Below the pieces are notes generated by a model, which saw nothing but the letters and a program-made list of their open reading frames with translations, was not told where the DNA came from and searched no databases. 64,000 bases of DNA. Source: Arenicellales bacterium (lineage in GTDB: Bacteria > Pseudomonadota > Gammaproteobacteria > Arenicellales > JAJDZL01). Shown piece by piece: positions 1 to 34,490 of this stretch; positions within the stretch are counted from its first letter, which is position 1; the number at the start of each line of letters is the position of its first letter. A program made the position numbers and the translations under genes. The DNA lies in assembly GCA_965203865.1 (NCBI GenBank), contig OZ241916.1, positions 2,872,738-2,936,737 on the forward strand, in the 5' to 3' direction.

Positions 1-378
1 ATGCGCCAGTAGATGGGAACACGAAACCTCTGCTCCCGCATTCCATCTTCCTGATACGCTTGATTGGTCTTGTATGTCCAACCAACGAAAAAATCAAGTA
101 TTTGTAGTGCCGCCTGCAAAAGTAGGAAAATCGCAGACAATTGGAACTCCCCAAAAAGAAAACTTCTCAAGTTCAAACAATAAGCGCTAATGATTTTGAC
201 ACTGGGTCAATGGCAAGCTCTTTAACCGGAGATGAAGCGAGAATTTCAATATCGTTTGTTTAAATTCAGGCGTGGCTAGATAAAATTTAGCGACAAAGCA
301 TAAATTCATGCCTGGCATCGGGGTATAATATAGACCTTGACCATGAATAGGAACTTATCAATACTCCCTTAAACTCGC

Positions 379-2268
379 GTGGCACATACGTACGACGCAT
401 CTGCAATTGAAGTCCTGGTGGGGCTTGAACCGGTTCGCAAGCGACCGGGCATGTACACTCAAACTGAGCAACCCAATCATCTCGCTCAGGAAATTGTCGA
501 CAACAGCGTAGACGAAGTCATTGCCGGGTTTGCTAGTCAAATTGATATAACTCTGCACACCGACCTCTCATTGAGCGTGAAAGACAACGGGCGCGGAATG
601 CCCGTAGACATGCATCAAGAAGAAAACTTGCCCGGTGTAGAAGTAATCATGACCCGCCTGCATGCCGGTGCAAAGTTTTCAAGCAAAAACTACATGCACT
701 CCGGCGGATTGCACGGAGTCGGAGTATCTGTGGTCAACGCACTTTCCAAACGACTGGAAGTTGAAATTCGACGAGACGGCAAACTGCATCGGATGCTGTT
801 TGAAGATGGAAACACTGTCGAACAACTACAGGTAGTCGAACAGGTTCGAAAAAACGATACCGGTTCCAAGGTTCAATTTTGGCCGGACGAGCAGTTCTTC
901 GATTCGGTCAAGTTTAGTCTCCCCAGATTAAAGCATTTGCTATTGGCGAAAGCTGTACTTTGCCCAGGACTGCATATCAACTTCACTGATGAAAACAATT
1001 CGGAAAACAATGAGAGCTGGTTTTTCGAGGATGGTCTAGGGGACTACCTTGCCAATCAATTGAACGGAAGCGAGCGAATTCCAGCTGAACCGATTATCTT
1101 TCACAAGAAATCAGATGATTCCCAAGTTGACTGGGTAGTGGTTTGGAGTCCTGAATCAGCTGAAACGATTACTGAAAGCTATGTAAATTTGATTCCAACT
1201 TCACTTGGCGGAACCCATGTGAATGGACTGCGAACAGGAATGACCGACGCTGTCCGAGAATTTTGCGAACTTCGGAACTTGCTGCCGCGAGGGATTCGAA
1301 TTTCCGCAGAAGATGTCTGGAGGCATTGCAGTTTTGTACTTTCCGTACGCATGGACAACCCGCAATTCACCGGTCAAACCAAAGACAGGCTAACATCCCA
1401 GGGGATCGGCAAAACTGTTTCTGCAATTGCGAAAGACGCTTTCAGTCTCTGGCTTCACAAGCATGTAACAGATGCAGAGCGAATTGCCCAGCTTTGCATT
1501 GAACTAGCCCGCAGTCGTCAACGTGCAAACAAGCAAGTTCAGAGAAAGAAATACGGGGCAGGTCCAGCACTGCCCGGCAAATTGACAGATTGCACAAGCG
1601 GAAACATTGAGCTTACAGAATTGTTTCTTGTAGAAGGCGATTCAGCCGGAGGTTCTGCACGACAGGCCCGAAATCGGGAAACACAGGCCATACTGCCACT
1701 TCGGGGGAAAATTCTGAATACCTGGGAGATTGACTCAACTCAGGTTCTTGCATCAAACGAAGTACATGATCTGGCGGTCGCTCTGGGAGTTGACCCGGGG
1801 TCTGACAATATTTCTGGACTACGATACGGGAAGGTATGTATTCTCGCCGACGCGGATTCTGATGGTGCGCATATTGCCACGCTGCTATGTGCTCTCTTTG
1901 TCAGGCATTTTCGGAAGCTGGTGGAAAATGGTCGTATCTATGTAGCTCAGCCTCCACTGTATAGAGTTGATGCTGGAAAAGACGTGCACTATGTTTTGGA
2001 CGATAGCGAACTGGACAGTGTAGTTGAAGAACTGGAAGCGAAAAAGCCGAAAAGGAAAGTTTCAATTCAGCGATTCAAGGGGTTGGGCGAGATGAACCCC
2101 AAGCAGTTGAAAGAAACTACAATGCATCCTGAAACTCGAAAACTGGTTCAATTGACACTGGATGAACCTGCCAAGACAGACCGCTTGCTGAACATGCTTC
2201 TGGCGAAGAAAAAAGTAGCAGAACGCAAGAACTGGCTTACAGAATTCGGCGACCGCGCACAATTGTAG
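379..2268 (+). CDS. parE: DNA topoisomerase IV subunit B
   Basis: 629-aa ORF with a GTG start. N-terminus is MAHTYDASAIEVLVGLEPVRKRPGMYT. GHKL motifs (EIVDNSVDE, DNGRGMP) and Toprim motifs (EGDSAGGSA, DADSDGAHI) are present. Length fits ParE rather than GyrB, and parC follows directly. Confidence 0.95.
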   Translation: MAHTYDASAIEVLVGLEPVRKRPGMYTQTEQPNHLAQEIVDNSVDEVIAGFASQIDITLHTDLSLSVKDNGRGMPVDMHQEENLPGVEVIMTRLHAGAKFSSKNYMHSGGLHGVGVSVVNALSKRLEVEIRRDGKLHRMLFEDGNTVEQLQVVEQVRKNDTGSKVQFWPDEQFFDSVKFSLPRLKHLLLAKAVLCPGLHINFTDENNSENNESWFFEDGLGDYLANQLNGSERIPAEPIIFHKKSDDSQVDWVVVWSPESAETITESYVNLIPTSLGGTHVNGLRTGMTDAVREFCELRNLLPRGIRISAEDVWRHCSFVLSVRMDNPQFTGQTKDRLTSQGIGKTVSAIAKDAFSLWLHKHVTDAERIAQLCIELARSRQRANKQVQRKKYGAGPALPGKLTDCTSGNIELTELFLVEGDSAGGSARQARNRETQAILPLRGKILNTWEIDSTQVLASNEVHDLAVALGVDPGSDNISGLRYGKVCILADADSDGAHIATLLCALFVRHFRKLVENGRIYVAQPPLYRVDAGKDVHYVLDDSELDSVVEELEAKKPKRKVSIQRFKGLGEMNPKQLKETTMHPETRKLVQLTLDEPAKTDRLLNMLLAKKKVAERKNWLTEFGDRAQL

Positions 2269-2302
2269 TAATCATTGACGATTTCAAGTCGCCAGACCAG
2301 CC

Positions 2303-4585
2303 ATGCCGGATATAACATCTGAAGAATCCAAAAAGCAGGTACAACTGAGCCTGGTACTGAATCCAGACTCGGATTCGGAAAAAATAGTACTGGCCGATTT
2401 TGCTGAAAAGGCGTATCTCGACTACTCGATGTACGTCATTTTGGACCGTGCACTGCCTCATATATCCGACGGGCTGAAACCTGTACAGCGCAGGATCATT
2501 TATGCAATGTCCGAGTTGGGCCTGAGTGCAACAGCAAAGTTCAAAAAATCTGCCCGCACTGTTGGAGATGTAATCGGGAAGTTTCATCCGCACGGAGAAA
2601 CTGCGGCATACGAAGCCATGGTGCTTATGGCGCAGCCGTTCTCTTATCGCTACCCCATTGTAGACGGACAAGGAAACTGGGGCTCGCAGGACGATCCTAA
2701 ATCTTTCGCAGCAATGCGCTACACCGAGTGCAGATTTGCTCCCTACGCGCAAGTTCTGCTTGAAGAGGTTTCTCAGGGCACAGTAGACTGGATACCGAAC
2801 TTCGATGGTACTCTGAGAGAGCCTCAGCGACTTCCGGCACAACTTCCCAATGTTTTGCTAAACGGCTCTTCAGGAATCGCTGTCGGAATGGCAACTGATA
2901 TTCCGCCTCATAATATTTCCGAAGTCGTAAAGGCGTGTATCAAACTGCTACAGGAACCAAAATCCACAGTTGAAGATCTATGCCAACTTATTCTTGCTCC
3001 TGACTTTCCTACTGAAGCAGAAATTACTACTCCTCGAGGTGAAATAGTTTCGATGTACGAGTCGGGCAACGGTTCCATTCGTCAGCGAGCATCCTGGAAT
3101 ACAGAAGGCAATTCAATTGTAATCACAGCACTGCCCTACCAAACTTCCGGCGCAAAAATTATGGAGCAAATTGGTTCGCAAATACTGGCCAAAAAACTTC
3201 CGATGGTTGTTGACTTGCGAGATGAATCGGATGAAGAGGAGCCCACCAGACTTGTACTGGAATTAAAGAGTAATCGGACCAAAGCTCAACCTTTAATGAG
3301 CCATCTTTTCGCAACTACTGATTTAGAAAAAAGCCATCGCGTTAACCTGAACATGATTGGCCTGGATGGCAGACCCAGAGTCTACAATTTGAAAATTTTG
3401 CTTAAAGAGTGGCTTGAATTCAGATCGAACACAGTTTTAAAGAGACTGGAAAGCCGGCTAAGCACTGTAAGCGACCGCTTGCACATATTGGACGGGTTGT
3501 TAATCGTATTTTTGGATATTGACGAAGTTATATACATTGTTCGTAATGAAGACGAGCCTAAATCTGCATTAATGGAACGCTTTTCTCTTAGCGACAAACA
3601 GGCGGAAGCAATTCTGGAGATTCGTCTTCGCCAACTGGCAAAATTGGAAGAATTGAAAATTCGTCAAGAGCAATCAGAACTTGTCCAGGAAAAGACGGAG
3701 ATAGAGTTGGTAATCGGGTCAAAACGAAGATTAAACACTCTGGTACGACAAGAACTTGAAGCTGCTTCGGAGAAATATGGAGACAAACGTCGCTCCCCGC
3801 TCAAGGAAGGCAGTGCAGCAAAGGCCTTTAGTGAAATCGATCTTATTACGACAGAATCAATTACTGTTGTGCTATCAAAAATGGGCTGGATTCGCGTAGC
3901 AAAAGGACACGATATTGACCCGACATCACTGAGCTATCGCGAAGGAGACGAATTTCTGGAATGTGCAAAGGGTAAATCTGTTGACAATCTGATTTGCATG
4001 GATTCAATGGGCAGGACCTATTCACTTCAGGCTCATAAGTTATCTTCAGCAAGATCATTGGGAGAGCCGCTCACTAGCACCTTGACCCCGGATTCAGACG
4101 TGGGTTTTACCAGTGTAATTCTTGGCAAGAATGACTGGCACTGTTTTGTTGGCACCGATGAAGGTAAAGGATTTGTGACACCAGTTAGTGACATGATGGC
4201 AAAAAGCCGTAAAGGCAAAGCGACTCTGAGAGTACCAAAGGGGCATATGCCGCTACCTATGCAAACTATTTCGGATATGGAACAACTACTGGCTGTAGTC
4301 ACATCGCACGGTAGACTGCTAATTTATTCCGTTAATGAACTACCTGTCATGTCAAAGGGTGGCGGGGCTCGTTTAATCAATCTCCCGCCAAAAGCTCGAA
4401 AAGAGGGAGAAAGAGTCAGCCATGTAAAAATTCTGTCCATTAAGGATGAATTAATATTGCACTCTGGCAAACGCTATATGCGATTGAAGAAATCTGAATT
4501 TGAAAACTATTTGGGGGCAAGAGCACTTAGAGGGACCCTTCTTCCAAAAGGATTCCGGCACGTACACAAAGCTGAAGTGGAATGA
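2303..4585 (+). CDS. parC: DNA topoisomerase IV subunit A
   Basis: 760-aa ORF starting 34 nt after par[20 protein letters not shown] and the active-site Tyr context AAMRYTECR are typical of ParC/GyrA. Confidence 0.95.
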
Positions 4586-6639
4586 ACAAGATGGTTCAAA
4601 AAACTTATCACCCCCCCCCCCTATCTGAAGTAACGAACGCAAAAAGTCCGCGGCTTTGGTTTACTTCGTTCAGTAAGCCCGAAGGGTTTGGTTCGCATTC
4701 GATTTCAATTGGTAACGATATTAGCCCTGCCCCTATCGTTCGAGAACTGATTCAAAATTCTCTGGATGCCGGCCAATTGGCTGGTCGTTCAGAAGTAAAA
4801 ATCAGGTTTGAATTTGATGTTGTACGCGCTATTGAAATACCGGGTTGGGAAGAATACAAAGAAGCATTTCATGCTGCCGAAGATGCTCATAGTGAATACC
4901 TAGAGGCAGTTGAGGCTCAATACCTACGATTCTTGGAAAGTATCGAATCGCCAACACTTCCAATTCTGCATGTCATTGATAATGGCATTGGTCTAAACGA
5001 CCAAAGGATGAATGCCTTGCTAGGTGATGGCACTACGAGCAAGACAAACGATGAAGCCAATTCTGCCGGCTCATATGGACTAGGTCACTTCACAGCGTTT
5101 CCAGCATCAAATCTTCAATACATTTTGTATGGCGGACTCACCAAAGATGGTGTCAGGTGTGCTTCTGCACACGCTATCCTTGCTTCACACGAGTCAAATC
5201 AAGAACTCAAAGGTAAAGATGGATACTTAATATTGGAAACAAGAAACGATATTCGAAATCGATACGTATTTCCAAAAAACGGGCAAATTCCATCAATCAT
5301 TGATCGTAAATTGTCTGAAATTGAAAAGCAGAGCGAGTCTGGTTCAGTAGTTTCTATAACAGCGTTTAACGAGTTTATGGATAAAGAACAAAATGCCGTA
5401 GAACTAATCCTAGCATCTGCAGCAAAGCACTTTTTTCCTGCAATTCATCGCAAACGATTGATTCTCGAAGTACTCAAGGAAGGGGAAAAAACAATATTGG
5501 ATCAAGCAAAGCTGCATAAGTTGCTTGATAGTATAAAGTCCGAAAAACGAAGTCGAGACACCATTAACGGAAATAAGGCTTTTTCGGCGTTTCAGACACT
5601 TTGCAACGGCAATTCGAAAGAGGTAGAAACAGGCTTTGGCAAAGTTACCATCTTTGTGAGACAAGCTCCGAATGAAATTACACGCGTCAGTTTATTTCGA
5701 AACGGCATGTATATCACCGACGATTTAACACGAAACCGTCCGGGAAACTTTACGAAGTTTCTACCATTCAACGCTGTAATTCTGCTGGATCCCCCTTCCG
5801 ATATCGACAAATCTCGAGCATTCGAACTGGTTCGAAAGGCTGAGGGTGAGAAACACTCAGACATTAAACGACAAAGGCTAGCAGAAAAGCACTTGGAAGA
5901 TTTTGACGAGTTGTTTAATTCAATTCAACAGAATATCGGAGAAATGGCAGAGAAAGACAGTGGCGAATTCTTTATCCCTAGAGGCTTTATGCCCATTGAC
6001 TCACACGATGCATCTAGCCCGAGTCCGAATCAGCCAACAAGAAAGCGTAAGGCAACAGAGCAAACCGGTTCGTCCGTTATTCGACCTGAATTTTTACAAA
6101 CTTCAGAATCTCTGCTTAACAACATTCTTGAAGGTGACGGTGGAAACTCAAACGAAAACAGATCGGGTGCTGGGTCAGGAAATCCCAGTTCGGGGAATGA
6201 TGACGGCAAAGGAAAAAGAAACTTGTCAGGCAATCAAGATGGTCTGCAACCAAATTTCGACCCGAGAGGTGCTGTGGCTGATGTTCAAACAATGGCAAGA
6301 ATCTCCAAAAAGAATGTTGAACTGTTGATTTGCCCAAACACTGACTTGGAAAATGCTGGCGTTCGCATAACTACTGACAGTGGGTCTGACCCATCCTGCA
6401 CAGACCCGATTAAAGAAAAATTCCTTTCTTTAAAAACTGGTGTGTCACTTAATGGTCAGATGTTGCCTTCTGATGCGTATGTTTATGGCGGAAACGACAG
6501 CAAAATATATGAAATTCTACTGGGACCCATTTGCAAGGGAGAAAGAAAGAAATTGTCAATTCCGTTGTTGGATCAATACTCAGACGGAACAGTCTTCAAG
6601 GTAAATGTTGTAAATCGAAAACTTCAAAACAGGAACTAA
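4582..6639 (+). CDS. GHKL-superfamily ATPase; first gene of the Dnd/Ssp-like DNA sulfur-modification module (occupies the ATPase position)
   Basis: 685-aa ORF. Bergerat-fold motifs: N-box [12 protein letters not shown]1 [11 protein letters not shown]2 [10 protein letters not shown]. Its ATG overlaps the parC stop (ATGA). The C-terminal part contains a low-complexity G/S/N-rich linker. Function is inferred from context. Confidence 0.75.
4611..4621 (+). repeat. C11 homopolymer tract inside codons 10-14 (HPPPL) of the GHKL gene
   Basis: Counted directly: 11 consecutive C, flanked by A and T, 30 nt after the start codon. Confidence 0.95.
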
Positions 6640-7482
6640 TTGATGACTGGAATGCTACCTCGAATTCGACCCTATCCGGTTTTGGCAGCCAACTGTTTGG
6701 ATTATCAGTCCGATCACAATTATGAGACTCGTCATGAAATTCATGAAGGCACCGATAGCCAACTGGTACTTGAGCATCAACTTACCGAGAATAACTTGGT
6801 TGCACGACTGCTTCAGGAAGGCAAAGCTCAATTTTGCTGCACATTCACCTCTACTTCGTCGGCCTACCGCGAGGTTTTTACAGAGAGTGGTCAACTAACT
6901 ACGCATAAGCAGATTATAGAGTTGGACAGGTCAAGAGCTACATACCCATTATTCTGCCAGTCTGCAATCATCACGGTAGATGAAATATTTCATGTCGTTG
7001 CACCTGACAGAGATGGTTTGCATGAATTTTGGCACGGTACCTCTTTAGTATTTCCAAAAGGTGCATTTCTAGCTATGACGCCATTTTGGCGTGCCAACGA
7101 CCCACTGAGAAGCATCTTGATTGTGAAAAAAGCACGAGATGGCGAGCTACCTGACGGATGCTTCGAAGTCAAGGAGGCTGAAGAGAACGGGTTTTATTTT
7201 GAAATGACCGTTGCTCCCGATTTGTATGGTTGCCTGATAAATGCAGGAGGAAATGCTACTGCTCATCGCGACAGCATATATTCAGCTGCCTTAGCACAAG
7301 GGTTTGAGATTTTGCAAACTAGGTACAAAGAAAAAGAGGCTTGGACTCCTCATCACAATCTTCGCGGACTTTACGAGATGCTAATCTCACGAAATTTACC
7401 CACTTGGATGGATGACGAATTTAGCCCAAATCGCACCGTCGCAAAATTTCATCCCCACAAAATTATTACTGATATTGATTAA
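6640..7482 (+). CDS. hypothetical protein (module member, no motif recognised)
   Basis: 280-aa ORF abutting the upstream stop. It begins TTG at 6640, with an ATG at 6643 that is the likelier start. Its sequence looks like a real protein and it is packed tightly in the operon. Confidence 0.7.
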   Translation: MMTGMLPRIRPYPVLAANCLDYQSDHNYETRHEIHEGTDSQLVLEHQLTENNLVARLLQEGKAQFCCTFTSTSSAYREVFTESGQLTTHKQIIELDRSRATYPLFCQSAIITVDEIFHVVAPDRDGLHEFWHGTSLVFPKGAFLAMTPFWRANDPLRSILIVKKARDGELPDGCFEVKEAEENGFYFEMTVAPDLYGCLINAGGNATAHRDSIYSAALAQGFEILQTRYKEKEAWTPHHNLRGLYEMLISRNLPTWMDDEFSPNRTVAKFHPHKIITDID

Positions 7483-7509
7483 ATCACTGATTAGGCGGAA
7501 TTTAATCAA

Positions 7510-8373
7510 GTGAATACCTTAAAATTCAACATTCTTTCTGCGGCAGATTTATCTCGCCTTAGACATGAGCTGATAAAAGGCGTTGGTGGCGAGCCTCCTT
7601 CCACCCTTATTCACAGGCAGAAGAAGTTTTTGGAATCAGTTGCTTGCAAATCTGCTACAGCACTTTTGGATCAACTTCCCGAAGGACGGGGAGACACAGA
7701 ATTAACGCTTCCGGTATTCAATAGAAAAATCACTGAGGCAGAACTATTTGATCCGCCTATTGACACTGAAAAGCTAATCTTTTCGACTCTCAGCGAACTC
7801 GAACCACGGTACGCTTGCTCACCAGCGTTCTGGGCAAGCCTGCATTTACAGTTGATATCGCGTGACATTGTCAGCCCGTCTTATTTTGCGATGGGGAAAG
7901 CTACTATGTCAGGAAGAGCCCGTATTCAAGAATCACTGCAATGCGATGATGCAAAAATGATTGATAGGTGTGTAAGAACATTTTTTCGAAGATTTTGCGG
8001 ATTACCTGAGGTAAGAGGAACTTCCAGTGTTTTTATGGACTGTCGTACTGCACGAGCTTGGTGGCGCGGGTTCTTGGTTAGTGAAGTACGCCAGTATATT
8101 GATGCGGAAGAAGAAAAACTGTGGAGAAAACTTAGGCATACAGAATTTTGGACTCACTTGATGATGTATGGAGTCCGAAGGCTAACCGTAATCAGTGATA
8201 AGAAAATTCGAGTGGCAACCATCGTTAGATTTGCTGAAATGCACCCTGAATTAAAGTCAAGACAAGATATTCAGCAATTTCTTGGAAAAATCGGAGCGAG
8301 ATCCACTTATCAGGTAATGGGAGCCCTTACGGTTGATGAAAACTTGAAAATTATTCAATCGCTTGAGAAGTAA
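7510..8373 (+). CDS. hypothetical protein (module member; the length is what I recall for SspB-type proteins, but no motif was verified)
   Basis: 287-aa ORF with a GTG start. The next gene's ATG directly follows its stop (TAAATG). Confidence 0.7.
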   Translation: MNTLKFNILSAADLSRLRHELIKGVGGEPPSTLIHRQKKFLESVACKSATALLDQLPEGRGDTELTLPVFNRKITEAELFDPPIDTEKLIFSTLSELEPRYACSPAFWASLHLQLISRDIVSPSYFAMGKATMSGRARIQESLQCDDAKMIDRCVRTFFRRFCGLPEVRGTSSVFMDCRTARAWWRGFLVSEVRQYIDAEEEKLWRKLRHTEFWTHLMMYGVRRLTVISDKKIRVATIVRFAEMHPELKSRQDIQQFLGKIGARSTYQVMGALTVDENLKIIQSLEK

Positions 8374-9657
8374 ATGCAAATCACCAAGCAAAGCCAACCA
8401 TTACCGAGACTTCGCGGGCTTCCTCAAATTGAATTAAACTACGAAGTTCCACACCATAAGGAATTGCCGCACGTCTTCAAGTTTTCAGGCGGAAGATCCA
8501 GCTCTATGCTGTTGCTTGCACTTTTGAAGAGTCGTCAACTTCGACCTTCGCGCGGAGATGTAGTCGTTTTCAACAATACTTCAACTGAATACCCAGCAAC
8601 CTATGAATTTGTGACCACATGCAAGCGCATTGTGGAACAACGCTACAACATTCCATTTTTCTGGCTGGAATTTCAAACCTATGAAGATGCTCGAAGAGGC
8701 CAGTGGTCGCGTCTTCCCACTTTTCGCTTGGTACATCCGGTACCGTACTCTAAATCCAAACCTAATGGTTACCGGCACAAAGGAGAGGTGTTTGAAGAGC
8801 TTGTGTCATGGAAGCAGCAACTTCCAAACCGATTCACACGACTATGTACTCAACATTTGAAATTGGAGACGACCGCGAATTTTCTGGGCGAGTGGCTAGC
8901 GGTAAAGAGCCAAACTCATCGCCTCGGTCATTGGTACGACAAAACGAAAGTTAAAGCAGTCGACCAAAGTGAACGAGCAAAACTTCAAGAATATCTTTTA
9001 TCCCAACCCCCAACGCGATCTAGACAGAAATTTCAAGATTACACTTCTGCCAAGCTGGTAAGAATTTCCAAAAAGAGGCTAGCAGAATACTGCCTTGATG
9101 AGACGGCGACATTGAAAGGTCTTAACCCGGTAGAGTTTATCTCAATCATTGGACTTCGCGGTGACGAGCCGCGTCGCGTTGCGCGGGTGAAGGAACGAAA
9201 TCGATCATTTGCAAATTCGTCTGACTTGCCTGATCGCTTAGCGGACGGAGAGCATGTTTATATGCCACTATTCGATGCAGAAATCGATCGAAATGATGTT
9301 TTGAAATTTTGGTCGAAACAAACTTGGGACTTAAATACTCCTCATAGTCTGAACTTGTCCAACTGCGTATACTGTTTTATGAAAGGAAAGCAAACCTTGT
9401 CCTTGCTAGCATCGAGGGAGTGTTCAACCAAAAACAATTCTGCTCAATATGGACCAGAGCATATTGAGTGGTGGAGTGATATAGAGAATCGTTATTCGCG
9501 GCAGATGGCAAGCAAGCGAAAAAACGGAGCTATAACCAGATTCGGCTTTTTTGGAGCAGATGCCCCAGTATCGTATGCACAAATTCAGAAAGAGGCACGG
9601 ATAAACTCAGACATCGCTCTTGATTCGGACTCACTACCCTGTGAATGCACTGACTGA
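8374..9657 (+). CDS. PP-loop ATP pyrophosphatase of the PAPS-reductase family (DndC/SspD-like)
   Basis: 427-aa ORF. PP-loop variant FKFSGGRSSSMLLLALL is near the N-terminus. Cys motifs NCVYCFMKG and the C-terminal LPCECTD fit the DndC / PAPS-reductase family. A cysteine desulfurase gene lies adjacent. Confidence 0.8.
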   Translation: MQITKQSQPLPRLRGLPQIELNYEVPHHKELPHVFKFSGGRSSSMLLLALLKSRQLRPSRGDVVVFNNTSTEYPATYEFVTTCKRIVEQRYNIPFFWLEFQTYEDARRGQWSRLPTFRLVHPVPYSKSKPNGYRHKGEVFEELVSWKQQLPNRFTRLCTQHLKLETTANFLGEWLAVKSQTHRLGHWYDKTKVKAVDQSERAKLQEYLLSQPPTRSRQKFQDYTSAKLVRISKKRLAEYCLDETATLKGLNPVEFISIIGLRGDEPRRVARVKERNRSFANSSDLPDRLADGEHVYMPLFDAEIDRNDVLKFWSKQTWDLNTPHSLNLSNCVYCFMKGKQTLSLLASRECSTKNNSAQYGPEHIEWWSDIENRYSRQMASKRKNGAITRFGFFGADAPVSYAQIQKEARINSDIALDSDSLPCECTD

Positions 9658-9662
9658 GACTG

Positions 9663-10823
9663 GTGAACGCTACAAAAGACGTAATCTATCTTGACCACCA
9701 AGCAACAACTCCGGTTGATTCTCGTGTACTAGATGCGATGCTGCCGTATTTTTCCGATGAATTTGCAAATCCACACGGCAATACCTATACGCTTTCAATA
9801 CTCGCCCGAGATGCGGTTGAAAACGCCCGACAACAAATCGCTGATACAGTCAGCGCTTCCCCACAGGAGATTTTCTTTACCGGAAGTGCCACTGAATCCA
9901 ATAATCTAGCACTGTTTGGAACAGCAATGGCAAGCAAGAAAAAACGTATTGCGATTGTAGCAACTGAACATAAATCTGTCATTGAACCAGCAATTCGGCT
10001 CCGTTCACAAGGCTATCAAGTGGATGTATTCAAAGTAGCGAAAAATGGAATCCTTAATCCCGAACATGTTCGTCTTGCGTTAAAGGATGACACAATTCTA
10101 CTGTCAGTAATGCTGGTCAACAATGAAATCGGAGTCATTCAGCCGGTTAGAGAAATTGCAAAGATATGTCATGAAAAAGGAGTATTTGTACATTCAGATT
10201 GTGCACAGGCACTAGGCAAGATTCCAGTCAACCTAAAGAACCTTGGTGTTGATCTTGCCACTTTCTCTTCGCACAAAGCTTACGGACCGAAAGGGATAGG
10301 AGCGATATACATTCGGCGAAAACCTAAAGTTTTAATCAAACCGCTTATACTGGGCGGCGGTCAAGAAGGTGGCATTCGCTCTGGAACTTTGCCAGTTCCA
10401 CTATGTGTAGGTTTTGGTACAGCAGCTACACTCGTTAAGAAACAATTGGCAAATGATATCAAGCGTATTGACCGTCTCACAAAAAAACTGCTTGATGGAT
10501 TCAGCAATGTCAAAAGTGATATCTTATTAAACGGCGACCCTGATCGTTTAGCACCCGGATGTCTAAGTATTTCGTTTCCCGGTTACCGAGGCGATAGTTT
10601 AATTGATGCGTTCTCCGGAATAGCATGTTCGACTGGCTCTTCTTGCGAAGCAACATCCACAAACGTTTCGCACGTTCTGCGCGCGATAGGTTTATCCAAA
10701 GCAAGGGCAGAATCTACACTAAGGTTCGGTATTGGTAGAGATACCGATGAAGGACAAATATTTTCCGCACTTGAAATCATTAGAAAGCATTTTCAAGGAG
10801 AGAGTGATTTACGGGAAGCATAA
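9663..10823 (+). CDS. class V PLP-dependent cysteine desulfurase (IscS/NifS/DndA/SspA-like)
   Basis: 386-aa ORF with a GTG start. IYLDHQATTP N-terminus, PLP-lysine context FSSHKAYGPKGIGAIYIR, and catalytic-Cys loop ACSTGSSCEA. Confidence 0.9.
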   Translation: MNATKDVIYLDHQATTPVDSRVLDAMLPYFSDEFANPHGNTYTLSILARDAVENARQQIADTVSASPQEIFFTGSATESNNLALFGTAMASKKKRIAIVATEHKSVIEPAIRLRSQGYQVDVFKVAKNGILNPEHVRLALKDDTILLSVMLVNNEIGVIQPVREIAKICHEKGVFVHSDCAQALGKIPVNLKNLGVDLATFSSHKAYGPKGIGAIYIRRKPKVLIKPLILGGGQEGGIRSGTLPVPLCVGFGTAATLVKKQLANDIKRIDRLTKKLLDGFSNVKSDILLNGDPDRLAPGCLSISFPGYRGDSLIDAFSGIACSTGSSCEATSTNVSHVLRAIGLSKARAESTLRFGIGRDTDEGQIFSALEIIRKHFQGESDLREA

Positions 10824-10894
10824 AAGCGGACAATCAGGAAATTCAAAAACGGCAACAACAAACCAAGTATTGTAGTTTGCATTAAAATCAGTAA

Positions 10895-10917
10895 CTTGGC
10901 AACTACGAAACCAACTC
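10895..10917 (+). repeat. 23-nt motif CTTGGCAACTACGAAACCAACTC (copy 1 of 2)
   Basis: Matches 37681..37703 at 22 of 23 positions in the same orientation. Both copies are intergenic. Confidence 0.8.
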
Positions 10918-10955: not shown

Positions 10956-11963
10956 CTATCCTGGCGTTTTCGCCTCGTCTGTCAATTCGTACCTTAAATC
11001 GGGATTAAAGTTCGGAATAGCTATAAATGCACCTCCGTTTTGACGCGCCACCTCCCGCATCAAAACTGCAAACCGGTCATTTGTAGTAATCAAATCCTGA
11101 TTCAAAAAACCAATTCCGTGAATCCGTGCACGCGGCTCACCCGTAGCCGGATCCCTGTTTATTCTGTTAATTCTGTTCAGTACATCGTCATACGACGGAC
11201 CAGTATAGTCATCCCCGAACACATAGATTGACAAACTCTCTGTTTTACGGACGTAGGCATTTAATGCAGTAGTTACGCCTTCCAGGGGACTACTGTTTGA
11301 AAAACTACTCCAAGATCTCATTCGACGCAATACCGACCTTCTTCTTGAAGGTGTGTCTGGAATCCATTTTCCCCCGTAAGCCGATATCAGGTAGTTTCCC
11401 ATATCATTCATAATTTGAAATCCTTTCACCTCAGGATGAATGTCCAGAATATTTTCAATTTCCCGAATGACTCGAGACCAAATTGCCATCATACTGCCCG
11501 ATGTATCCACAACAAAAATGACATGCTCGCTGTCAACCGGAATCCCGCCAACTTCTACTACCTTTTCACTTGTGGCACCCGGTTGCTCCTGAACAACCGG
11601 TTCGCTTTCCTGACTTTGCAAAGCGGCCAGCTCGGCTTGTTTACTGGCAATCTCTTGTTCCAGCGATTCCAGGTTTTCGTCGGACCCGCTAAGCACGTCT
11701 GATGCGATAGAAAGACGTGTTTGCTGCAATTCAATTTGCTGCTGAAGATATTCATTCCTTTTCTCCGCCTGGTCCGATTTGTCCTCCGCCGTCATAACAG
11801 CATCCAGCAAGTTGTTCACTTGAGTCACATCGGGAATACCGCCTTCTACATCCTGCTTTGACAACAGTACAAGCAGTACTATCGCACCAAAGCCGCAACA
11901 AATCACGTCCAAAAATGAGACGCTAAAAATTTCAGTGCCTCTTCTGCGTTCCTTCATGGCCAA
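10956..11963 (-). CDS. ExbD/TolR-like membrane anchor fused to coiled coil and vWA domain (paralog 2)
   Basis: 335-aa ORF. The N-terminus RRRGTEIFSVSFLDVICCGFGAIVLLVLL resembles the ExbD/TolR TM helix with its conserved Asp. A Q/E-rich coiled-coil segment follows, then a vWA MIDAS motif VIFVVDTSGSM. It overlaps the upstream gene by 10 nt. Confidence 0.8.
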   Translation of the reverse strand: MAMKERRRGTEIFSVSFLDVICCGFGAIVLLVLLSKQDVEGGIPDVTQVNNLLDAVMTAEDKSDQAEKRNEYLQQQIELQQTRLSIASDVLSGSDENLESLEQEIASKQAELAALQSQESEPVVQEQPGATSEKVVEVGGIPVDSEHVIFVVDTSGSMMAIWSRVIREIENILDIHPEVKGFQIMNDMGNYLISAYGGKWIPDTPSRRRSVLRRMRSWSSFSNSSPLEGVTTALNAYVRKTESLSIYVFGDDYTGPSYDDVLNRINRINRDPATGEPRARIHGIGFLNQDLITTNDRFAVLMREVARQNGGAFIAIPNFNPDLRYELTDEAKTPG

Positions 11964-13054
11964 AAGGGTGGAGGACTAACCATCATGCCACCTGTTGCAG
12001 AATTCCATTGCCAATACGCAAATGCAGCATTAGGGTCTCCTTCAATTGGAAGCAGTACAGTATTGATTTTGGTTTTTCTGCCTGTAGAAAATCCGACAAT
12101 TGCAGAATAGAACAATGCCTCCCTGCAAGCACTCGTAATCGTCGCATCTTTTTTTGAATAAGATTTACATCTTAGTGCTCTTCGATATTTTAAGCTCAGC
12201 TTGCCAACTCCCTTTGTTGGCAAGCCGTCAGTAATAATATAAATGTCTGACGGCCTCAGTTTGTTCGTCCTTATGTGCCTTAGTGCCTCTTCAAAATTCG
12301 TGGCATTTTCCGGATGCAACTCGGCAAGCGCATCCTCGACCTGTTTTCTTTCCTTGGCATCAGAGCCCTTTATCCATTGTCGCCCATGCAAAAACCGCGC
12401 TTTTTCGTTGTAAGACACTATGAGATACTCGCTGTTATCCGGAACTCGATCCATTATCCAATTCACAACTCTCAAAGTGCGCTGCCATTTGGGAGCGGAC
12501 TTTTTTGCAGACACATCGGCGATCTGAGTTTTTACAATATCAATCAAACGCTCGTTTGCCATTGATGCACTGCTATCCAGCAAAATCAGGATTCGGTCGC
12601 CGCTGACTCTCAAACCGATTAAATGATCTTCTGATACTTTAGGGGAAATATTTGCCCCTTGGGGAGTTTCTACGCTGGCGACCTGAGTTTCTTGAGTCTT
12701 TATTTTTGCTTTCATTTCGGCAATGGCAGTATCCAATTGCTCGATTTCTTTGTTCTTGGCATCAATGCTGGCACTCGTCTGAGAAGTACCGCCTTCTTTT
12801 TCGTTTATTTTTTGTGTTAGTGTCTCAAGCTGCTGTTCAAGCAAGTTGTTTTCTGCCAAAGTCGCTTCGGTTTGACTTTCAATTTCTGCAATGTCGAAAG
12901 CAAGTGCAGAATTTTCTATATTCGGCACCTCAGTTTGGTACTTCACCAGCATGAAAATCAAGGTTACTGCTCCAAGTCCGCATGACATCACGTCAAGAAA
13001 AGCAATATTGAAGCCTTCAGGTCTTCGCTTAGCTCTCCTCATCGGTTTTTCCAA
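11954..13054 (-). CDS. ExbD/TolR-like membrane anchor fused to coiled coil and vWA domain (paralog 1)
   Basis: 366-aa ORF. N-terminus is RRAKRRPEGFNIAFLDVMSCGLGAVTLIFMLV (ExbD-like, Asp in the TM helix). A coiled-coil segment and the MIDAS motif ILILLDSSASM follow. It overlaps the MotA-like gene. Confidence 0.8.
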   Translation of the reverse strand: MEKPMRRAKRRPEGFNIAFLDVMSCGLGAVTLIFMLVKYQTEVPNIENSALAFDIAEIESQTEATLAENNLLEQQLETLTQKINEKEGGTSQTSASIDAKNKEIEQLDTAIAEMKAKIKTQETQVASVETPQGANISPKVSEDHLIGLRVSGDRILILLDSSASMANERLIDIVKTQIADVSAKKSAPKWQRTLRVVNWIMDRVPDNSEYLIVSYNEKARFLHGRQWIKGSDAKERKQVEDALAELHPENATNFEEALRHIRTNKLRPSDIYIITDGLPTKGVGKLSLKYRRALRCKSYSKKDATITSACREALFYSAIVGFSTGRKTKINTVLLPIEGDPNAAFAYWQWNSATGGMMVSPPPFWP

Positions 13055-13826
13055 TACGATTCAGCAAAAACTTTTCACAGTAAGCCTGTGTATCCACCAC
13101 TAGCCCATCCTGCAAGCGCTGCAGCTGATGCAAAAAAAACATGAGAAATATGCTTATGATCAAAGCTACAAATGTTGAATTGAATGCGACTCCCAGACTC
13201 GCTGCCATATTGGCAATATCTCCGGAAAGAGCTTCATCGGCTTGTGCAAGAGCTTGGCCGATTCCACGTACAGTGCCCAGAAATCCAATTGAAGGAATCG
13301 CCCAGATCAAATATCGGATCATCGCATTTTCGGACTCGATGCGTGCAGCCAACGCGTCTACGCCGGTAACGATCGCATCAGAGGTGTTTTGAACACTATT
13401 TGTTATTACAAAACGACGAACCGAAGCTGTTAATGTTTCAACCAGGGGAGTGCTTTGAACATTCTGGGGAAGCGAGTGCAATGACTCCAAACTCATCTCC
13501 ATCTCTTCAACGATAGTTCGGGGCTCTACTGATTCTTCGTCATCGGGGGAGGATTCCATCAAATCAATGTCGAACAAATACCTGTGCCGCGCGATTGAAA
13601 TGCACTTGTCAATGATCAGGAACAATCCCCAGAACATGAGGATAATGCAAATTTCCTGCTCGTAGTCTTTCAAAACAACTGCAAGCGTTCGAATAGTGGA
13701 CTGTCCTTCAGCTTGAGCAATCGCCAGCGCTCTTTCGGCCTGAGGACGAATCACTCCTGTGTAGAGCAAGTGCACGCCCGAGGCGCTAATGATCAGTGCA
13801 ATGATACTCTTGAATACGGATGGCAT
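13029..13826 (-). CDS. MotA/TolQ/ExbB-family proton-channel protein
   Basis: 265-aa ORF with several hydrophobic helices. The C-terminal signature IWAIPSIGFLGTVRGIGQALAQA...FNSTFVALIISIFLMFF is typical of the MotA/ExbB family. Confidence 0.85.
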   Translation of the reverse strand: MPSVFKSIIALIISASGVHLLYTGVIRPQAERALAIAQAEGQSTIRTLAVVLKDYEQEICIILMFWGLFLIIDKCISIARHRYLFDIDLMESSPDDEESVEPRTIVEEMEMSLESLHSLPQNVQSTPLVETLTASVRRFVITNSVQNTSDAIVTGVDALAARIESENAMIRYLIWAIPSIGFLGTVRGIGQALAQADEALSGDIANMAASLGVAFNSTFVALIISIFLMFFLHQLQRLQDGLVVDTQAYCEKFLLNRIGKTDEES

Positions 13827-13838
13827 TTATATCAAGAA

Positions 13839-14003
13839 TCAAATATCAACAGGGAACTTCGCAGGGCTGTTCAGACTAATGGAATACGGTTTATTGTCAG
13901 CGTCTACTTCGGTTACCAGTCCGTATACAACCCAGGCCGCCAATAGTGCGGCAATCAATCCGGCCCAATACAACTTATTTCTGAATCCTGCAACTGCTTT
14001 CAT
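13839..14003 (-). CDS. small single-pass membrane protein (54 aa, below the ORF-track cutoff)
   Basis: Hand translation gives MKAVAGFRNKLYWAGLIAALLAAWVVYGLVTEVDADNKPYSISLNSPAKFPVDI. Its ATG shares one base with the upstream stop (TGATG). It ends 12 nt before the MotA-like start, filling an otherwise unexplained 176-nt gap. Confidence 0.6.
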   Translation of the reverse strand: MKAVAGFRNKLYWAGLIAALLAAWVVYGLVTEVDADNKPYSISLNSPAKFPVDI

Positions 14004-16036
14004 CATCTGCCTTTCCCGTACACATACCTTGCAATGCGAAATCCTACCATATCTTTGCCCTTGTCCAAGCCTTCCCGAAAACTGGAACGTATTTCAGTCA
14101 AGCTTGCAGAACGAAAATTACTCCCCTTTATTACATGGCTGGAACCAAAAGGAGCACCGAACGGGTCCACCTCAAGCTCCGCTGACTGGGAAGGAAGCAG
14201 CATATAAACATCATGCACCCATTCACTCACGTTTCCCGCCATGTCATGCAATCCAGCCGAATCTGGTGGAAATGAACCAACCGGAGCAACCGAAGGGTAG
14301 CCATCTTTGTACCGGGGTATGATTTTTTCAAGAACCTTCTTGCCGCTCTCATCCGCAAGATTTCCACTCCCTGCAGGAATTGTCATTTCATCACCCCAGA
14401 CAAAGCGCACTTTCTTTTGCCTCCCGGCAACTCGTGCCAGCCATTCCCATTCCGCTTCAGTCAACAAGCGATAGCCGTTTGCTTGCGAATTGAAATTGGC
14501 AACCCATCCGTTTGCAATCTCATACACCAACTCCAGCCCTTCCTTCTTGCTCAGCCAATTGCAAAATTCTACCACATCTATCCATGATACATTCCTTATC
14601 GGCAGGTCCGGTTTGGTAACTTGATTTCCTTTAAATCGTGCAAACTGGCCCTCGGTAATTTCTGTAATACCGGCAAAAAACGGTTTCGTCAACTCAACAT
14701 TTCTCAAGATTTCGTTGGCGCGCTGTCCTTTTTCGCTTCTTGGTGCGCCCATAGTGAACTTTCCCCTTGAATCATTGCCGGGTTTAAACAGTTTCATCTT
14801 GACCCCGATAGAATTGGTAATCATGGGTGGGGCTTCCGACATTAGTACATCAAATTCCTTTTGGAGTGTCTTCTCCACCAGAAGCGGTGAACTTGCATCA
14901 GGAGTAATTTGTACATCTACAGCTCTGTAGCCGTCTCTTTTCAGCGTCAAGGATTGCGGAACGGTCTGAAGATCCAGTTGCCTTGGCGTGGTACCGATGG
15001 ACTTTCCGTTTAATATGATTTCCGATTCCGGACTTGACCTGACCACGACTTGCCCTGTTTCTTCTTCCAGTTGAAACTGGACATCCAAACGTTCATCAGG
15101 CTTCAGGTTGATACTTCTGGATTGGGATACATATCCTTTTTTCTCATAGACAAGTATGTGATTCTGGCTTGGTGTTACCGGAAATGCGGACGAAGGGTCG
15201 ACAAGTAGTCCGTCAACTGTAAACATTCCTCCCGATGGCGACACTTTAGCCTGTACAAAAGCCATCTTCATACTTAGCAAGAAGTCTCGAACCAGGTCTT
15301 TTGACTTGTTGGTAATTTCAACTGTGTCGGTTGCCGTTAAATAGCCAGAAAGACTTACGCTTATATTGTGAACACCTCCTTCCAGACTATCGATTTTCAA
15401 GGGGGTTCGACCATACTGTCTACCATCAACTTCAACCAACGCCTGCTCAGGAACTGAGTTAATAGACAAACTACGAGAAACAGGCTTGAGTTGCACCTCC
15501 ATTGAAACAGACTCTCCCCTTTCCACGTCAATATCAATAGATTCTTTCTTAAAGTACGGATGGTCAATTTCAAACGACTTCGTGCCGGCAAGCATTTTTT
15601 GAACAAATCTCTCACCTACAAATACCCTTTCACCGTTTAGACTCCATTGCGTACCGGAACTTGCTGGAATGGTCGAAATTTCTACTGTTGCAGGAACCTC
15701 ACGCATATTGACAGACAGGTTTCTGATTCCTGAACCAAAATCCACCGTGGGAGTTTCATCGTAAAATCCTTTGGCCTGAATAAGCAGACCCACTTGCCCG
15801 CCGAGCGAAAACACTTTCCCCGCAATAACAATTCCGGCGCCATCGGAAATAGACATTTCTGAAATTAATGCAGCTTCCTGTGGCGTTATGTGAACGGATA
15901 CTGCCCTAGTCCAGTAATTTATTGCTGCAGCAATAAGCAATAGCAGCAATATTCCCAGACCAGCAAACAATAATCTGGCTCGAAAACGTTTTTTCGCAAT
16001 AACAAGTTGCTGGTCAAATTTGTTCACTGCATACAA
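14003..16036 (-). CDS. membrane-anchored PEGA-repeat protein with C-terminal FGE-sulfatase (SUMF1/EgtB/PvdO-type) domain
   Basis: 677-aa ORF. N-terminal TM segment LLFAGLGILLLLLIAAAI. PEGA-like segments are present, e.g. VEVDGRQYGRTPLKIDSLEGGVHNISVSLSGY. FGE-domain motifs are GYRLLTEAEWEWLAR, GNVSEWVHD and VIKGSNF. Confidence 0.85.
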   Translation of the reverse strand: MYAVNKFDQQLVIAKKRFRARLLFAGLGILLLLLIAAAINYWTRAVSVHITPQEAALISEMSISDGAGIVIAGKVFSLGGQVGLLIQAKGFYDETPTVDFGSGIRNLSVNMREVPATVEISTIPASSGTQWSLNGERVFVGERFVQKMLAGTKSFEIDHPYFKKESIDIDVERGESVSMEVQLKPVSRSLSINSVPEQALVEVDGRQYGRTPLKIDSLEGGVHNISVSLSGYLTATDTVEITNKSKDLVRDFLLSMKMAFVQAKVSPSGGMFTVDGLLVDPSSAFPVTPSQNHILVYEKKGYVSQSRSINLKPDERLDVQFQLEEETGQVVVRSSPESEIILNGKSIGTTPRQLDLQTVPQSLTLKRDGYRAVDVQITPDASSPLLVEKTLQKEFDVLMSEAPPMITNSIGVKMKLFKPGNDSRGKFTMGAPRSEKGQRANEILRNVELTKPFFAGITEITEGQFARFKGNQVTKPDLPIRNVSWIDVVEFCNWLSKKEGLELVYEIANGWVANFNSQANGYRLLTEAEWEWLARVAGRQKKVRFVWGDEMTIPAGSGNLADESGKKVLEKIIPRYKDGYPSVAPVGSFPPDSAGLHDMAGNVSEWVHDVYMLLPSQSAELEVDPFGAPFGSSHVIKGSNFRSASLTEIRSSFREGLDKGKDMVGFRIARYVYGKGR

Positions 16037-33514: not shown

Positions 33515-34489
33515 CTATTTAGACTTCTTGGTTGGCAAGTGTGGGCCTATATACCCAATCTCTATACTTTGGGTAACCTTACAAAGACGAAAATGAATTC
33601 TCCCAACATTGCCAAAACGAGCATGCCACTCAAAAAATTCTTTCGAGCCCTCAGCGCTTAAAAAACTTCGACGTTCACGCAACTTCGGATTCGTTCTCAC
33701 ATTTTCTCCCTCTGGAGAAACACGGCATTTGAATTCAGGAAGGCTTGATTTTTTGACACGCCATTCTTCGCAGGTTTCATTCAATGCTTTTAATCTTTTG
33801 ATAACAGTTGGAAACTCCTGTTTGGGTAAATCTTGAATATGTTGCTCAACATCGAGACCAAATTTGAGGAACTGAAAAACGGAACATTTCATCGCCCAAA
33901 AGTCGCGTTGGTTCAAATTGACTTGTAACAGTTCAAGGTGAGACTCACAAATTGAATTTGCATGCCGGGCTTGTGTGAGGTTGTCTATGGTTTCTGATAC
34001 TTGTTCAACCGAACTGTCTTCGTACAATTCATTGAAATTGACCTTAATTTGCTCACAGTCCCAATTTTTGGATGAAAAACCGACTGCGATTGAATCAGTC
34101 ACAACACATAGAATTAAGGGGGCACCATCGTCGGGAGGCAATTTAACTTGATTTTGCGTTGAGTGAGATAAATACTCACAGTTGCTAAATCTTTCCTTAT
34201 ATGTTGCTTCGAGATTTTTATCTAGTGGATATTGGGCACTCAATTTTAAAAGAAGTTTAATCGAATCTTTAGCCTCCTGATAGTTATACGAACTTGGGTC
34301 TAAAAAACCATTCGGCTCTATTAGCTGCTGAATTTGCGGCCATTCTTTGGACATCCTCAGATTATTTTTTACAGCATTATTTGAAATCAGCAATGAAATG
34401 CCCGCCATAACATCTTTCAGCAGATGCGTCGCTTCATGGCGGTTATATGCCACAAGACTCACATGGTTGAGAACCATTTCACGTTTCAT
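33515..34489 (-). CDS. hypothetical protein, third gene of the DUF262-like/ATPase triad
   Basis: 324-aa ORF starting 1 nt after the ATPase gene stop. No motif could be assigned. The C-terminus is FFEWHARFGNVGRIHFRLCKVTQSIEIGYIGPHLPT. Confidence 0.7.
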   Translation of the reverse strand: MKREMVLNHVSLVAYNRHEATHLLKDVMAGISLLISNNAVKNNLRMSKEWPQIQQLIEPNGFLDPSSYNYQEAKDSIKLLLKLSAQYPLDKNLEATYKERFSNCEYLSHSTQNQVKLPPDDGAPLILCVVTDSIAVGFSSKNWDCEQIKVNFNELYEDSSVEQVSETIDNLTQARHANSICESHLELLQVNLNQRDFWAMKCSVFQFLKFGLDVEQHIQDLPKQEFPTVIKRLKALNETCEEWRVKKSSLPEFKCRVSPEGENVRTNPKLRERRSFLSAEGSKEFFEWHARFGNVGRIHFRLCKVTQSIEIGYIGPHLPTKKSK

Positions 34490-34490
34490 T

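Follow-up and report, generated by a model that had tools for sequence, protein, structure and literature searches.

A five-gene cassette that follows the topoisomerase IV genes parE and parC in a 64,000-nucleotide (nt) stretch of an Arenicellales bacterium genome (contig OZ241916.1; hereafter the window) is, on balance, probably the sulfur-writing flavour of a two-flavour defence family resembling restriction-modification (R-M) systems and built on the chassis of the PADLOC candidate system PDC-M33. Judged by sequence comparison, it would represent an undescribed type and not a variant of Ssp. The cassette encodes a GHKL (Bergerat-fold) ATPase (component A), two further proteins (components B and C), a PP-loop ATP-pyrophosphatase of the PAPS-reductase superfamily and a class V cysteine desulfurase (Table 1). 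The interpretation that it most likely puts sulfur into DNA, probably into the backbone, is well supported, because genes for SBD-HNH nucleases and for DUF262 proteins of the SspE/DndB class neighbour the module in its relatives. Coordinates refer to the window unless a locus is named; L labels denote the loci of relatives and P labels denote proteins.

In the scheme that we propose, the desulfurase would draw sulfur from cysteine as a persulfide, by analogy with the biochemistry of IscS, DndA and SspA, and the PP-loop enzyme would adenylate the DNA target and substitute sulfur. The product would most likely be a backbone phosphorothioate, considering the membership of the enzyme in the PAPS-reductase superfamily, its conserved cysteines and the phosphorothioate-reader genes beside its relatives. 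A dimer of the GHKL protein, together with B and C (the trio), would form an ATP-driven DNA clamp or scanner reading the mark, and the trio may also, or instead, guide the writer.

The sequence-only reading that preceded this analysis had described five co-oriented, tightly packed genes behind parC as an Ssp-like DNA sulfur-modification module. The gene junctions (-4, 0, 27, 0 and 5 nt) are exact in the list of open reading frames (ORFs), and the identities assigned to the genes (GHKL ATPase, two orphans, PAPS-reductase-type PP-loop protein, cysteine desulfurase) are upheld by Pfam, NCBIfam and PADLOC and by motifs. A sulfur pair aimed at DNA also stands, backed by the SBD-HNH and DUF262 neighbours in relatives, whereas membership of an Ssp-like family does not: the profile search yielded no match to SspB or SspC, the SspD match comes down to a 36-residue motif, and DndC was unmatched.

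The PP-loop enzyme and the desulfurase

The PP-loop protein carries the motifs SGGRSS (residues 38-43) and CVYC (C331-x-x-C334, residues 331-334). Across 18 sequences the invariant set comprises SGGRSS, C83, C158 (R-x-C-T...K), C331-x-x-C334 and a C-terminal C423-x-C425-TD, and RLCTQHLK, which fits the superfamily motif R-x-C-(C/T)-x-x-x-K, is invariant as well. The PAPS_reduct model of Pfam scored 17.8 bits (cut-off 22.5, E = 3.5e-3). PADLOC SspD was matched at E = 5.7e-9 over the whole sequence, with no single stretch passing alone and the match lying in residues 143-178, and PADLOC BrxP at E = 1.5e-5, confined to residues 28-98. The DndC models of PADLOC and NCBIfam gave no match to the 427-amino-acid (aa) protein at E <= 0.01, and a profile search of its alignment against PDB sequences returned marginal or spurious matches only. 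A plasmid search with the same protein recovered only the PAPS-reductase gene of a P1-like phage-plasmid, which is uninformative.

The desulfurase matches Aminotran_5 (E = 1.8e-76) and the PADLOC models of DndA (E = 7.6e-134) and SspA (E = 2.9e-133), and it does not reach the cut-offs of the NCBIfam equivalogs IscS and DndA (TIGR03235, 376 bits vs 480), with the IscS models scoring equally.

Since the PP-loop protein stays below threshold in both Pfam and NCBIfam, and since cysteine desulfurases are generalists, the pair could serve RNA thiolation, sulfate assimilation or cofactor synthesis, unrelated to DNA or defence. This is highly improbable in view of the obligate linkage of the pair to a trio that otherwise partners a DNA methylase and Vsr, the fusions of PP-loop proteins to DNA methylases, the DNA nuclease neighbours and the mobile, unit-like behaviour of the cassette within a variable island; besides, the neighbours inspected included no recurring sulfur-assimilation or tRNA-modification gene.

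Distribution and inheritance as one unit

A scan of GTDB-representative genomes seeded on the PP-loop protein found the module in 331 species-level genomes, and the PP-loop family falls into more than 1200 clusters when grouped at 90% identity and into 1873 when grouped at 50%, none of them named; the module is thus not rare. The best 80 of the 331 genomes are nearly all uncultured metagenome-assembled genomes, mostly marine and from many phyla, with sponge-symbiont-type names (Poriferihabitans, Porisulfidus, Entotheonella, Porifericomitales) frequent among them. All counts out of 79 refer to non-redundant genome loci seeded on the PP-loop protein.

The trio stands beside the PP-loop gene in 75 of the 79 loci and all five genes are present in 63, and the pairwise distances among the five proteins correlate (r = 0.84-0.93, 55 loci); the joint occurrence and correlated distances bear out the earlier proposal that the five genes form one functional unit. 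In comparison with the two closest relatives, the ratio of nonsynonymous to synonymous substitution rates is 0.08-0.26 for all five window genes. The mean p-distance is 0.60-0.63 for the trio vs 0.48 for the catalytic pair. Most loci (62) have the order PP-loop-desulfurase-(DUF262)-A-B-C, and the order of the window, A-B-C-PP-loop-desulfurase-(DUF262), is found in 14; the two are permutations of one block holding A-B-C and another holding the PP-loop gene, the desulfurase gene and, where present, the DUF262 gene. A more elaborate arrangement occurs in L054 (2738-19151), with an SBD-HNH gene, three GHKL-B-C trios, a natural B-C fusion ORF (8067-9890), a single PP-loop gene and no desulfurase.

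In L073 (7371-8360), an HNH-HIT fusion protein adjoins a solitary PP-loop gene without the trio. The position of a HIT nucleotide hydrolase beside a presumed DNA-adenylating enzyme is suggestive.

Neighbouring genes in relatives

A DUF262/GmrSD_N gene, of the SspE/DndB class, lies after the desulfurase gene in 33 of the 79 loci. The DUF262 proteins of the relatives reached the SspE models at E ~2e-3 only, and HEC-05 was matched better. Genes that join a ScoMcrA-type sulfur-binding domain (SBD) to HNH flank the module in L001, L004, L005, L040, L054, L067, L072 and L087 and in several metagenome loci, and one of these genes matches the phosphorothioate-binding region of ScoMcrA (PDB 5zmm/5zmo) at E = 5e-11.

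Two flavours of the module

The trio of the window matched the PADLOC candidate PDC-M33 (A, E = 5e-33; B, E = 2.9e-10; C, E = 5.5e-3), with the order A-B-C conserved. With the GHKL protein as seed, a metagenome scan yielded two groups, 30 sulfur-type and 22 distant methyl-type loci. The closer GHKL relatives are linked to a PP-loop gene wherever the flanking sequence suffices. The 22 distant loci are true PDC-M33 (E down to 1e-153), their component C is Pfam DUF6339, and none of them has a PP-loop gene; a C5-cytosine methylase gene stands beside the GHKL gene in 21 of the 22, mostly directly upstream, and Vsr is present in those loci with enough sequence, the typical order being methylase-GHKL-B-DUF6339-Vsr. 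The 30 sulfur-type metagenome loci and the window all lack both the methylase and Vsr. Plasmid-borne trios are likewise found near dcm and vsr genes. As the trio partners a C5-methylase and Vsr elsewhere, the PP-loop/desulfurase pair occupies the methylase slot. For prokaryotic MORC-like GHKL ATPases ("paraMORC"), a role in R-M operons alongside cytosine methylases and Vsr has been predicted (Iyer et al., PMC2292703). Our literature search covered PDC-M33, DUF6339, the combination of GHKL and phosphorothioate, and that of PAPS reductase and MORC; it turned up nothing bearing on the arrangement described here.

Intact fusions of a C5-cytosine methylase with a complete PP-loop protein were detected in P0201 (L146, 8001-10472), P0203 (L147, 83-2641) and P0200. 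P0201 stands by itself in a region that looks like a mobile element (Rep3_C, pRha, topoisomerase, single-stranded DNA-binding protein, secretin and type II secretion system ATPase); neither a trio nor a desulfurase occurs within 8 kb, and this placement resembles that of orphan modification genes carried by mobile elements. This lone fusion argues that the PP-loop protein is the modification enzyme and may work without the trio.

The trio proteins

The GHKL protein scored 23.0 bits against HATPase_c_3 of Pfam (cut-off 25) and matched the sacsin-type ATP-binding domain at E = 4.8e-6. Its Bergerat motifs, ExxxNxxD (N56/D59, alignment numbering from ATG 4591), DNGIG and the Gly-rich motifs, are invariant in 22 homologues, and a profile search of its alignment against PDB sequences gave marginal MutL/MORC matches at the ATP lid only. 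B and C belong to no family in Pfam or NCBIfam. The AlphaFold model of B combines a beta-sandwich with helices (mean predicted local distance difference test, pLDDT, 74.7), and that of C is an all-alpha domain (pLDDT 87.8, predicted template-modelling score 0.87). Foldseek searches of B and C against PDB, and of C against BFVD, returned nothing at E <= 1e-3. Component C is tied to DUF6339 through the DUF6339 matches of its homologues and a common ARxWW core. The sulfur-type C carries an insertion (residues 163-178, window 7996-8043; GLPEVRG..S..DC) with an invariant Cys178, which is missing from the methylase-linked DUF6339 proteins.

Two candidate activities were dropped. A PD-(D/E)xK site in B ("PD...EVK") has a Lys that is not conserved and a wrong spacing, and a HhH-GPD glycosylase reading of C ("GLPEVRG...D") found no structural match to EndoIII, AlkA or MutY, the motif being missing in the methyl-type C.

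Role of the trio

The methyl flavour implies that the trio may be the half of the system that carries out surveillance or restriction and leaves marked DNA alone, and this is the role that we tentatively favour; with a C5-methylase and Vsr as its partners elsewhere, it is at least as likely as that of a writer helper of the SspB/SspC kind. On a rival model, which builds on the sequence-only reading, the five genes are a pure phosphorothioate writer in which the trio takes the part of SspB/SspC or DndD/DndE (ATP-dependent choice of sites, nicking), and the window holds an orphan modification module without restriction activity. We regard that model as rather unlikely, and leave what remains to both roles or to something else.

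Several observations weigh against the sulfur-writing R-M-like reading, and part of them speaks for the five-gene writer. The search for nuclease motifs in A, B and C was negative, and the fold searches were empty. PDC-M33 is itself an unvalidated candidate system, and the sulfur product is deduced from SBD-HNH neighbours in ~5-10% of loci and DUF262 neighbours in ~40%. Phosphorothioate synthesis in Dnd, Ssp and BREX-4 requires a nucleoside triphosphatase (NTPase) besides the PAPS-reductase protein (PMC12914056); the GHKL protein is the only NTPase in the cassette, which favours a writer role for it. The three trios around one PP-loop gene in L054 are more readily understood if the writer owes its specificity to the trios, and the insertion with the invariant cysteine in the sulfur-type C could be a sulfur-relay or writer-contact element. 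The NTPase rule, L054 and the insertion thus count for the five-gene writer, to which a one-to-one mapping onto SspA, SspD, SspE and SspB/C can be added, as can the DUF262 gene travelling with the PP-loop/desulfurase block and the faster divergence of the trio relative to the catalytic pair, like that of specificity subunits.

Against the five-gene writer stands the trio of the methyl flavour, which in 21 of 22 loci accompanies C5-methylases that are self-sufficient and where there is no sulfur writer to be helped. The methylase-PP-loop fusion is found alone on a mobile element, with the trio absent, and homology to SspB, SspC, DndD or DndE was not found. A one-enzyme phosphorothioate writer also has a precedent in TdpC, as tdpC alone suffices for the synthesis (PMC12914056).

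Nature of the mark

A phosphorothioate is not the only product that can be envisaged. The mark could be a thiolated DNA base, such as 2-thiocytosine, formed by adenylation of a base carbonyl as in the PP-loop tRNA thiolases; TtcA, MnmA and ThiI exemplify this typical PP-loop thiolation chemistry. The fusion of PP-loop proteins to base-flipping C5-cytosine methylases, the distance of the PP-loop sequence from DndC and SspD, and the replacement of a cytosine methylase by the PP-loop enzyme in the operon would agree with such a mark. We nevertheless find it improbable, since the recurrent neighbours are phosphorothioate-specific SBD-HNH genes and SspE-class DUF262 genes, and the model matches lie on the PAPS-reductase/SspD/BrxP side, with none to tRNA thiolase families; to our knowledge, no DNA base thiolation system has been described.

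A related and equally speculative reading, to which we give little probability, takes the PP-loop protein as an autonomous, sequence-directed sulfur writer in the methylase slot of a paraMORC machine that would read 5-methylcytosine or sulfur, its product being perhaps thiolated cytosine. Such a new mark is hinted at by the C5-methylase fusions on mobile elements and by the distance from DndC and SspD.

Comparison with known systems

Four phosphorothioate systems are established, namely Dnd, Ssp, Tdp and BREX-4 (PMC12914056). None of the four uses a GHKL ATPase. At E <= 0.01, the DndB, DndC, DndD, DndE, SspB and SspC models of PADLOC and NCBIfam gave no match to the five proteins, in line with the earlier description of the module as non-canonical and devoid of DndB, DndD and DndE.

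The module shares with Dnd a PAPS-reductase-superfamily enzyme with conserved cysteines and a desulfurase that is possibly of the DndA class, and many of its loci are without a recognised restriction partner, like solitary dnd clusters. Dnd, however, has the ABC/SMC-like ATPase DndD and a [4Fe-4S] DndC, whereas the only ATPase of the window cassette is of the GHKL type. The likeness to Ssp lies in an SspA-like desulfurase, a PAPS-reductase PP-loop enzyme and an ATPase, to which relatives add a DUF262 protein in a position like that of SspE; the likeness would extend to the logic of marking the own DNA and sensing the mark. On the other hand, the nickase SspB (triple winged helix-turn-helix/DUF4007) and the ORC-like AAA+ protein SspC are unmatched, the window ATPase has the GHKL fold, and SspE (DUF262 plus DUF1524) is gone from the window except for a 24-codon remnant.

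TdpABC is the phosphorothioate system of thermophiles. In the TdpABC work of An et al. in 2025, the writer reportedly acts via an adenylated intermediate and an ATP-driven complex is said to be held off by the mark. If the trio is the restriction half, the cassette would resemble Tdp in having a single PP-loop writer and an ATP-driven complex restrained by the mark; it differs in having its own desulfurase and in a GHKL-B-C trio without PDB homologues. In BREX type 4, the methylase PglX is replaced by the PAPS-reductase protein BrxP and phosphorothioate is made (PMC12914056), which offers a precedent for a swap from methylase to sulfur enzyme on a defence chassis. That chassis is unrelated, however, as the similarity to BrxP is found in the N-terminal PP-loop region only and no BrxC, BrxZ or BrxL was matched. 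PDC-M33 is alike in its homologous trio, the order A-B-C, the tight operon and the DNA-modification enzyme alongside; the differences are the PP-loop and desulfurase genes in place of methylase and Vsr, an identity of ~15-25%, the Cys insertion in C and the frequent addition of DUF262.

If the sulfur-writing reading is true, this would be a fifth machinery of the phosphorothioate type, with partner proteins entirely different from those of Dnd, Ssp, Tdp and BREX-4, and, following BREX, the second natural case in which a sulfur-transferase has taken the place of a methylase. For the orphan candidate PDC-M33/DUF6339 it would provide a concrete setting, that of a chassis compatible with either mark, methyl or sulfur, and the methylase-PP-loop fusion carried by a mobile element hints at an arms race around such marks. 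The sufficiency of a single PP-loop enzyme, the reader of the sulfur and on/off switching at homopolymers are now testable.

Table 1. Positions of the cassette, its genes and associated features in the window.
Feature	Position	Strand	Length	Remarks
parE	379-2268	+	629 aa	Gram-negative topoisomerase IV equivalog
parC	2303-4585	+	760 aa	Gram-negative topoisomerase IV equivalog
Whole variable cassette	4583-10917	+		Between conserved parC end and conserved downstream flank (blastn vs L143)
GHKL (Bergerat-fold) ATPase, component A	ORF 4582-6639, conserved start 4591	+	685 aa (ORF)	
C11 homopolymer	4611-4621	+		GHKL codons 7-11 from ATG 4591; candidate slipped-strand on/off switch
Component B	6640-7482	+	280 aa	Predicted beta-sandwich then helical tail; no known family
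Component C	7510-8373	+	287 aa	All-alpha, Arg/Trp-rich; remote DUF6339 relative
PP-loop ATP-pyrophosphatase, PAPS-reductase superfamily	8374-9657	+	427 aa	Presumed sulfur-inserting enzyme
Class V cysteine desulfurase, IscS/NifS/DndA/SspA class	9663-10823	+	386 aa	
Decayed DUF262/GmrSD_N 5' remnant	10811-10885	+		24 codons 10811-10882, stop 10883-10885 (alignment with L084 and L086)

Loss of the DUF262 partner

The absence of a restriction partner beside the module, as stated in the sequence-only reading, is true of the window, but a decayed DUF262/GmrSD_N remnant overlaps the end of the desulfurase gene (Table 1). In L084 and L086, a GmrSD_N gene of 574-578 aa begins 14 nt after the desulfurase stop. 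In the window the corresponding start has changed from ATG to ACG, and a premature stop follows at which the homology ends; tblastn of L084 GmrSD_N residues 2-23 against window 10814-10879 gave 73% identity (E = 2e-3). The remnant shows that the DUF262 accessory or restriction partner of the window was deleted recently. The desulfurase gene is 9 codons longer than that of L084, whose TAA stop reads CAA in the window (10794-10823), and the extended ORF enters the former DUF262 start region; other cluster members are likewise 386 aa, so that the extension is not window-specific.

A search of the 64-kb window for a second DUF262 or an SBD-HNH partner found none apart from the DUF262 gene of a three-gene NsnABC system (33515-36856, minus strand), which PADLOC recognised by NsnA (DUF262, E = 1.8e-139), NsnB (AAA_15/DUF3696 ATPase, E = 8e-112) and NsnC (E = 3e-51). 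This gene was set aside as a partner of the module, as it is part of an unrelated, complete defence system.

The slot behind parC

The sequence-only reading had described the module as welded onto the parE-parC operon, a meaningful coupling that the relatives contradict. In blastn against L143, identity is 97% over window 193-4582 and 95% from 10918 on, and everything between differs. The parE-parC genes of both L143 and L144 are 97% identical to those of the window, with the identity ending at the parC stop codon. The L143 slot holds an IetA-like AAA gene and a different module variant (27-49% aa identity) on the opposite strand, DUF262 gene included; in L143, as in L144, the IetA-like gene lies between parC and the inverted module and is bounded by a 67-bp duplicate of the parC 3' end (the two features at L143 12512-13525 and 13831-13897). 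The duplicate matches the parC terminus of the window better than that of L143 itself and has the look of a target-site duplication left by the insertion of an island. The window block 4581-10881, in turn, has 90% nucleotide identity with L084, and the module has 85% with L086, the shared flanking genes reaching only ~70%; the L084 and L086 modules sit after transporter and decarboxylase genes and not after parC. Since the L143 slot differs and the L084 and L086 modules lie elsewhere, the placement beside parC is incidental: by these alignments, the position after parC is a variable slot where cassettes are exchanged, and adjacency to parC is specific to the lineage of the window.

The ATGA overlap of the first start codon with the parC stop, which had been read as translational coupling, is present at 4582 but is not the conserved start, as relatives align at ATG 4591, 5 nt past the parC stop, and L084, L085 and L086 read ATA at 4582. 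No promoter-like or terminator-like site was found at the parC-GHKL junction. The window has kept none of the 5' intergenic region, which measures 168 nt in L084; lacking such a region of its own, the cassette is probably transcribed by read-through from parE-parC, as a consequence of insertion and not by conserved design.

A functional coupling to topoisomerase IV, in which the GHKL protein would work with ParC/ParE or the sulfur mark would guide decatenation and the overlap would be meaningful, could draw on the ATGA overlap, on a parC-GHKL junction free of terminator and promoter, and on ParE being itself a GHKL ATPase. The chance of this is very slight, given the closest modules (L084, L086) away from parC, the conserved start at ATG 4591, the inverted, different variant and IetA-like gene behind a 97% identical parC in L143, and parC adjacency reported for none of the 79 genome loci. 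For annotation, the lesson is that neighbouring a housekeeping operon, even with start/stop overlap, can be a by-product of island insertion.

The conserved flank on the other side of the cassette (10956-16036, minus strand) encodes a 335-aa protein without family, a coiled-coil/VWA protein, a MotA/ExbB-family channel and a protein with PEGA and FGE-sulfatase domains. Parts of this flank cluster near the module in L084 and L086, where they are inverted and ~70% identical.

Homopolymer tracts

The GHKL gene of the window contains a tract of C11 near its start (Table 1), which is C12 in L084, L085 and L086. The conservation of this poly-C alone was discarded as evidence, being not significant with four sequences and a synonymous divergence (dS) of ~0.3. 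The case for phase variation is therefore based on the recurrence of tracts across the family. Of 32 G/C runs of at least 9 nt across 132 loci, about 20 lie inside module genes or immediately ahead of them; these genes account for about one third of the sequence. Such tracts, mostly in GHKL genes, are found in L012 (6869, C14), L013 (C19), L011 (6862, C11), L023 (7366, G13), L043 (6949, G18), L068 (6347, C13), L054 (14166, G19) and L072 (9975, C19). The GHKL genes of L003/L013, L011 and L023 are split exactly at tracts, and one locus that was assembled twice has C14 in one assembly (L012) and C19 in the other (L013). Homopolymer sequencing error could account for the length differences, but not for the presence of the tracts. 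Overall, the tracts suggest that expression of the module is phase-variable, and the C11 tract may switch the window cassette on and off.

Only three G/C runs of at least 9 nt occur in the 64-kb window. The other two, C12 (43070-43081) and C10 (48841-48850), each lie ~310 nt upstream of giant paralogous Calx-beta/autotransporter ORFs (38142-42761 and 44027-48529, minus strand), and these two tracts look like surface-protein contingency loci.

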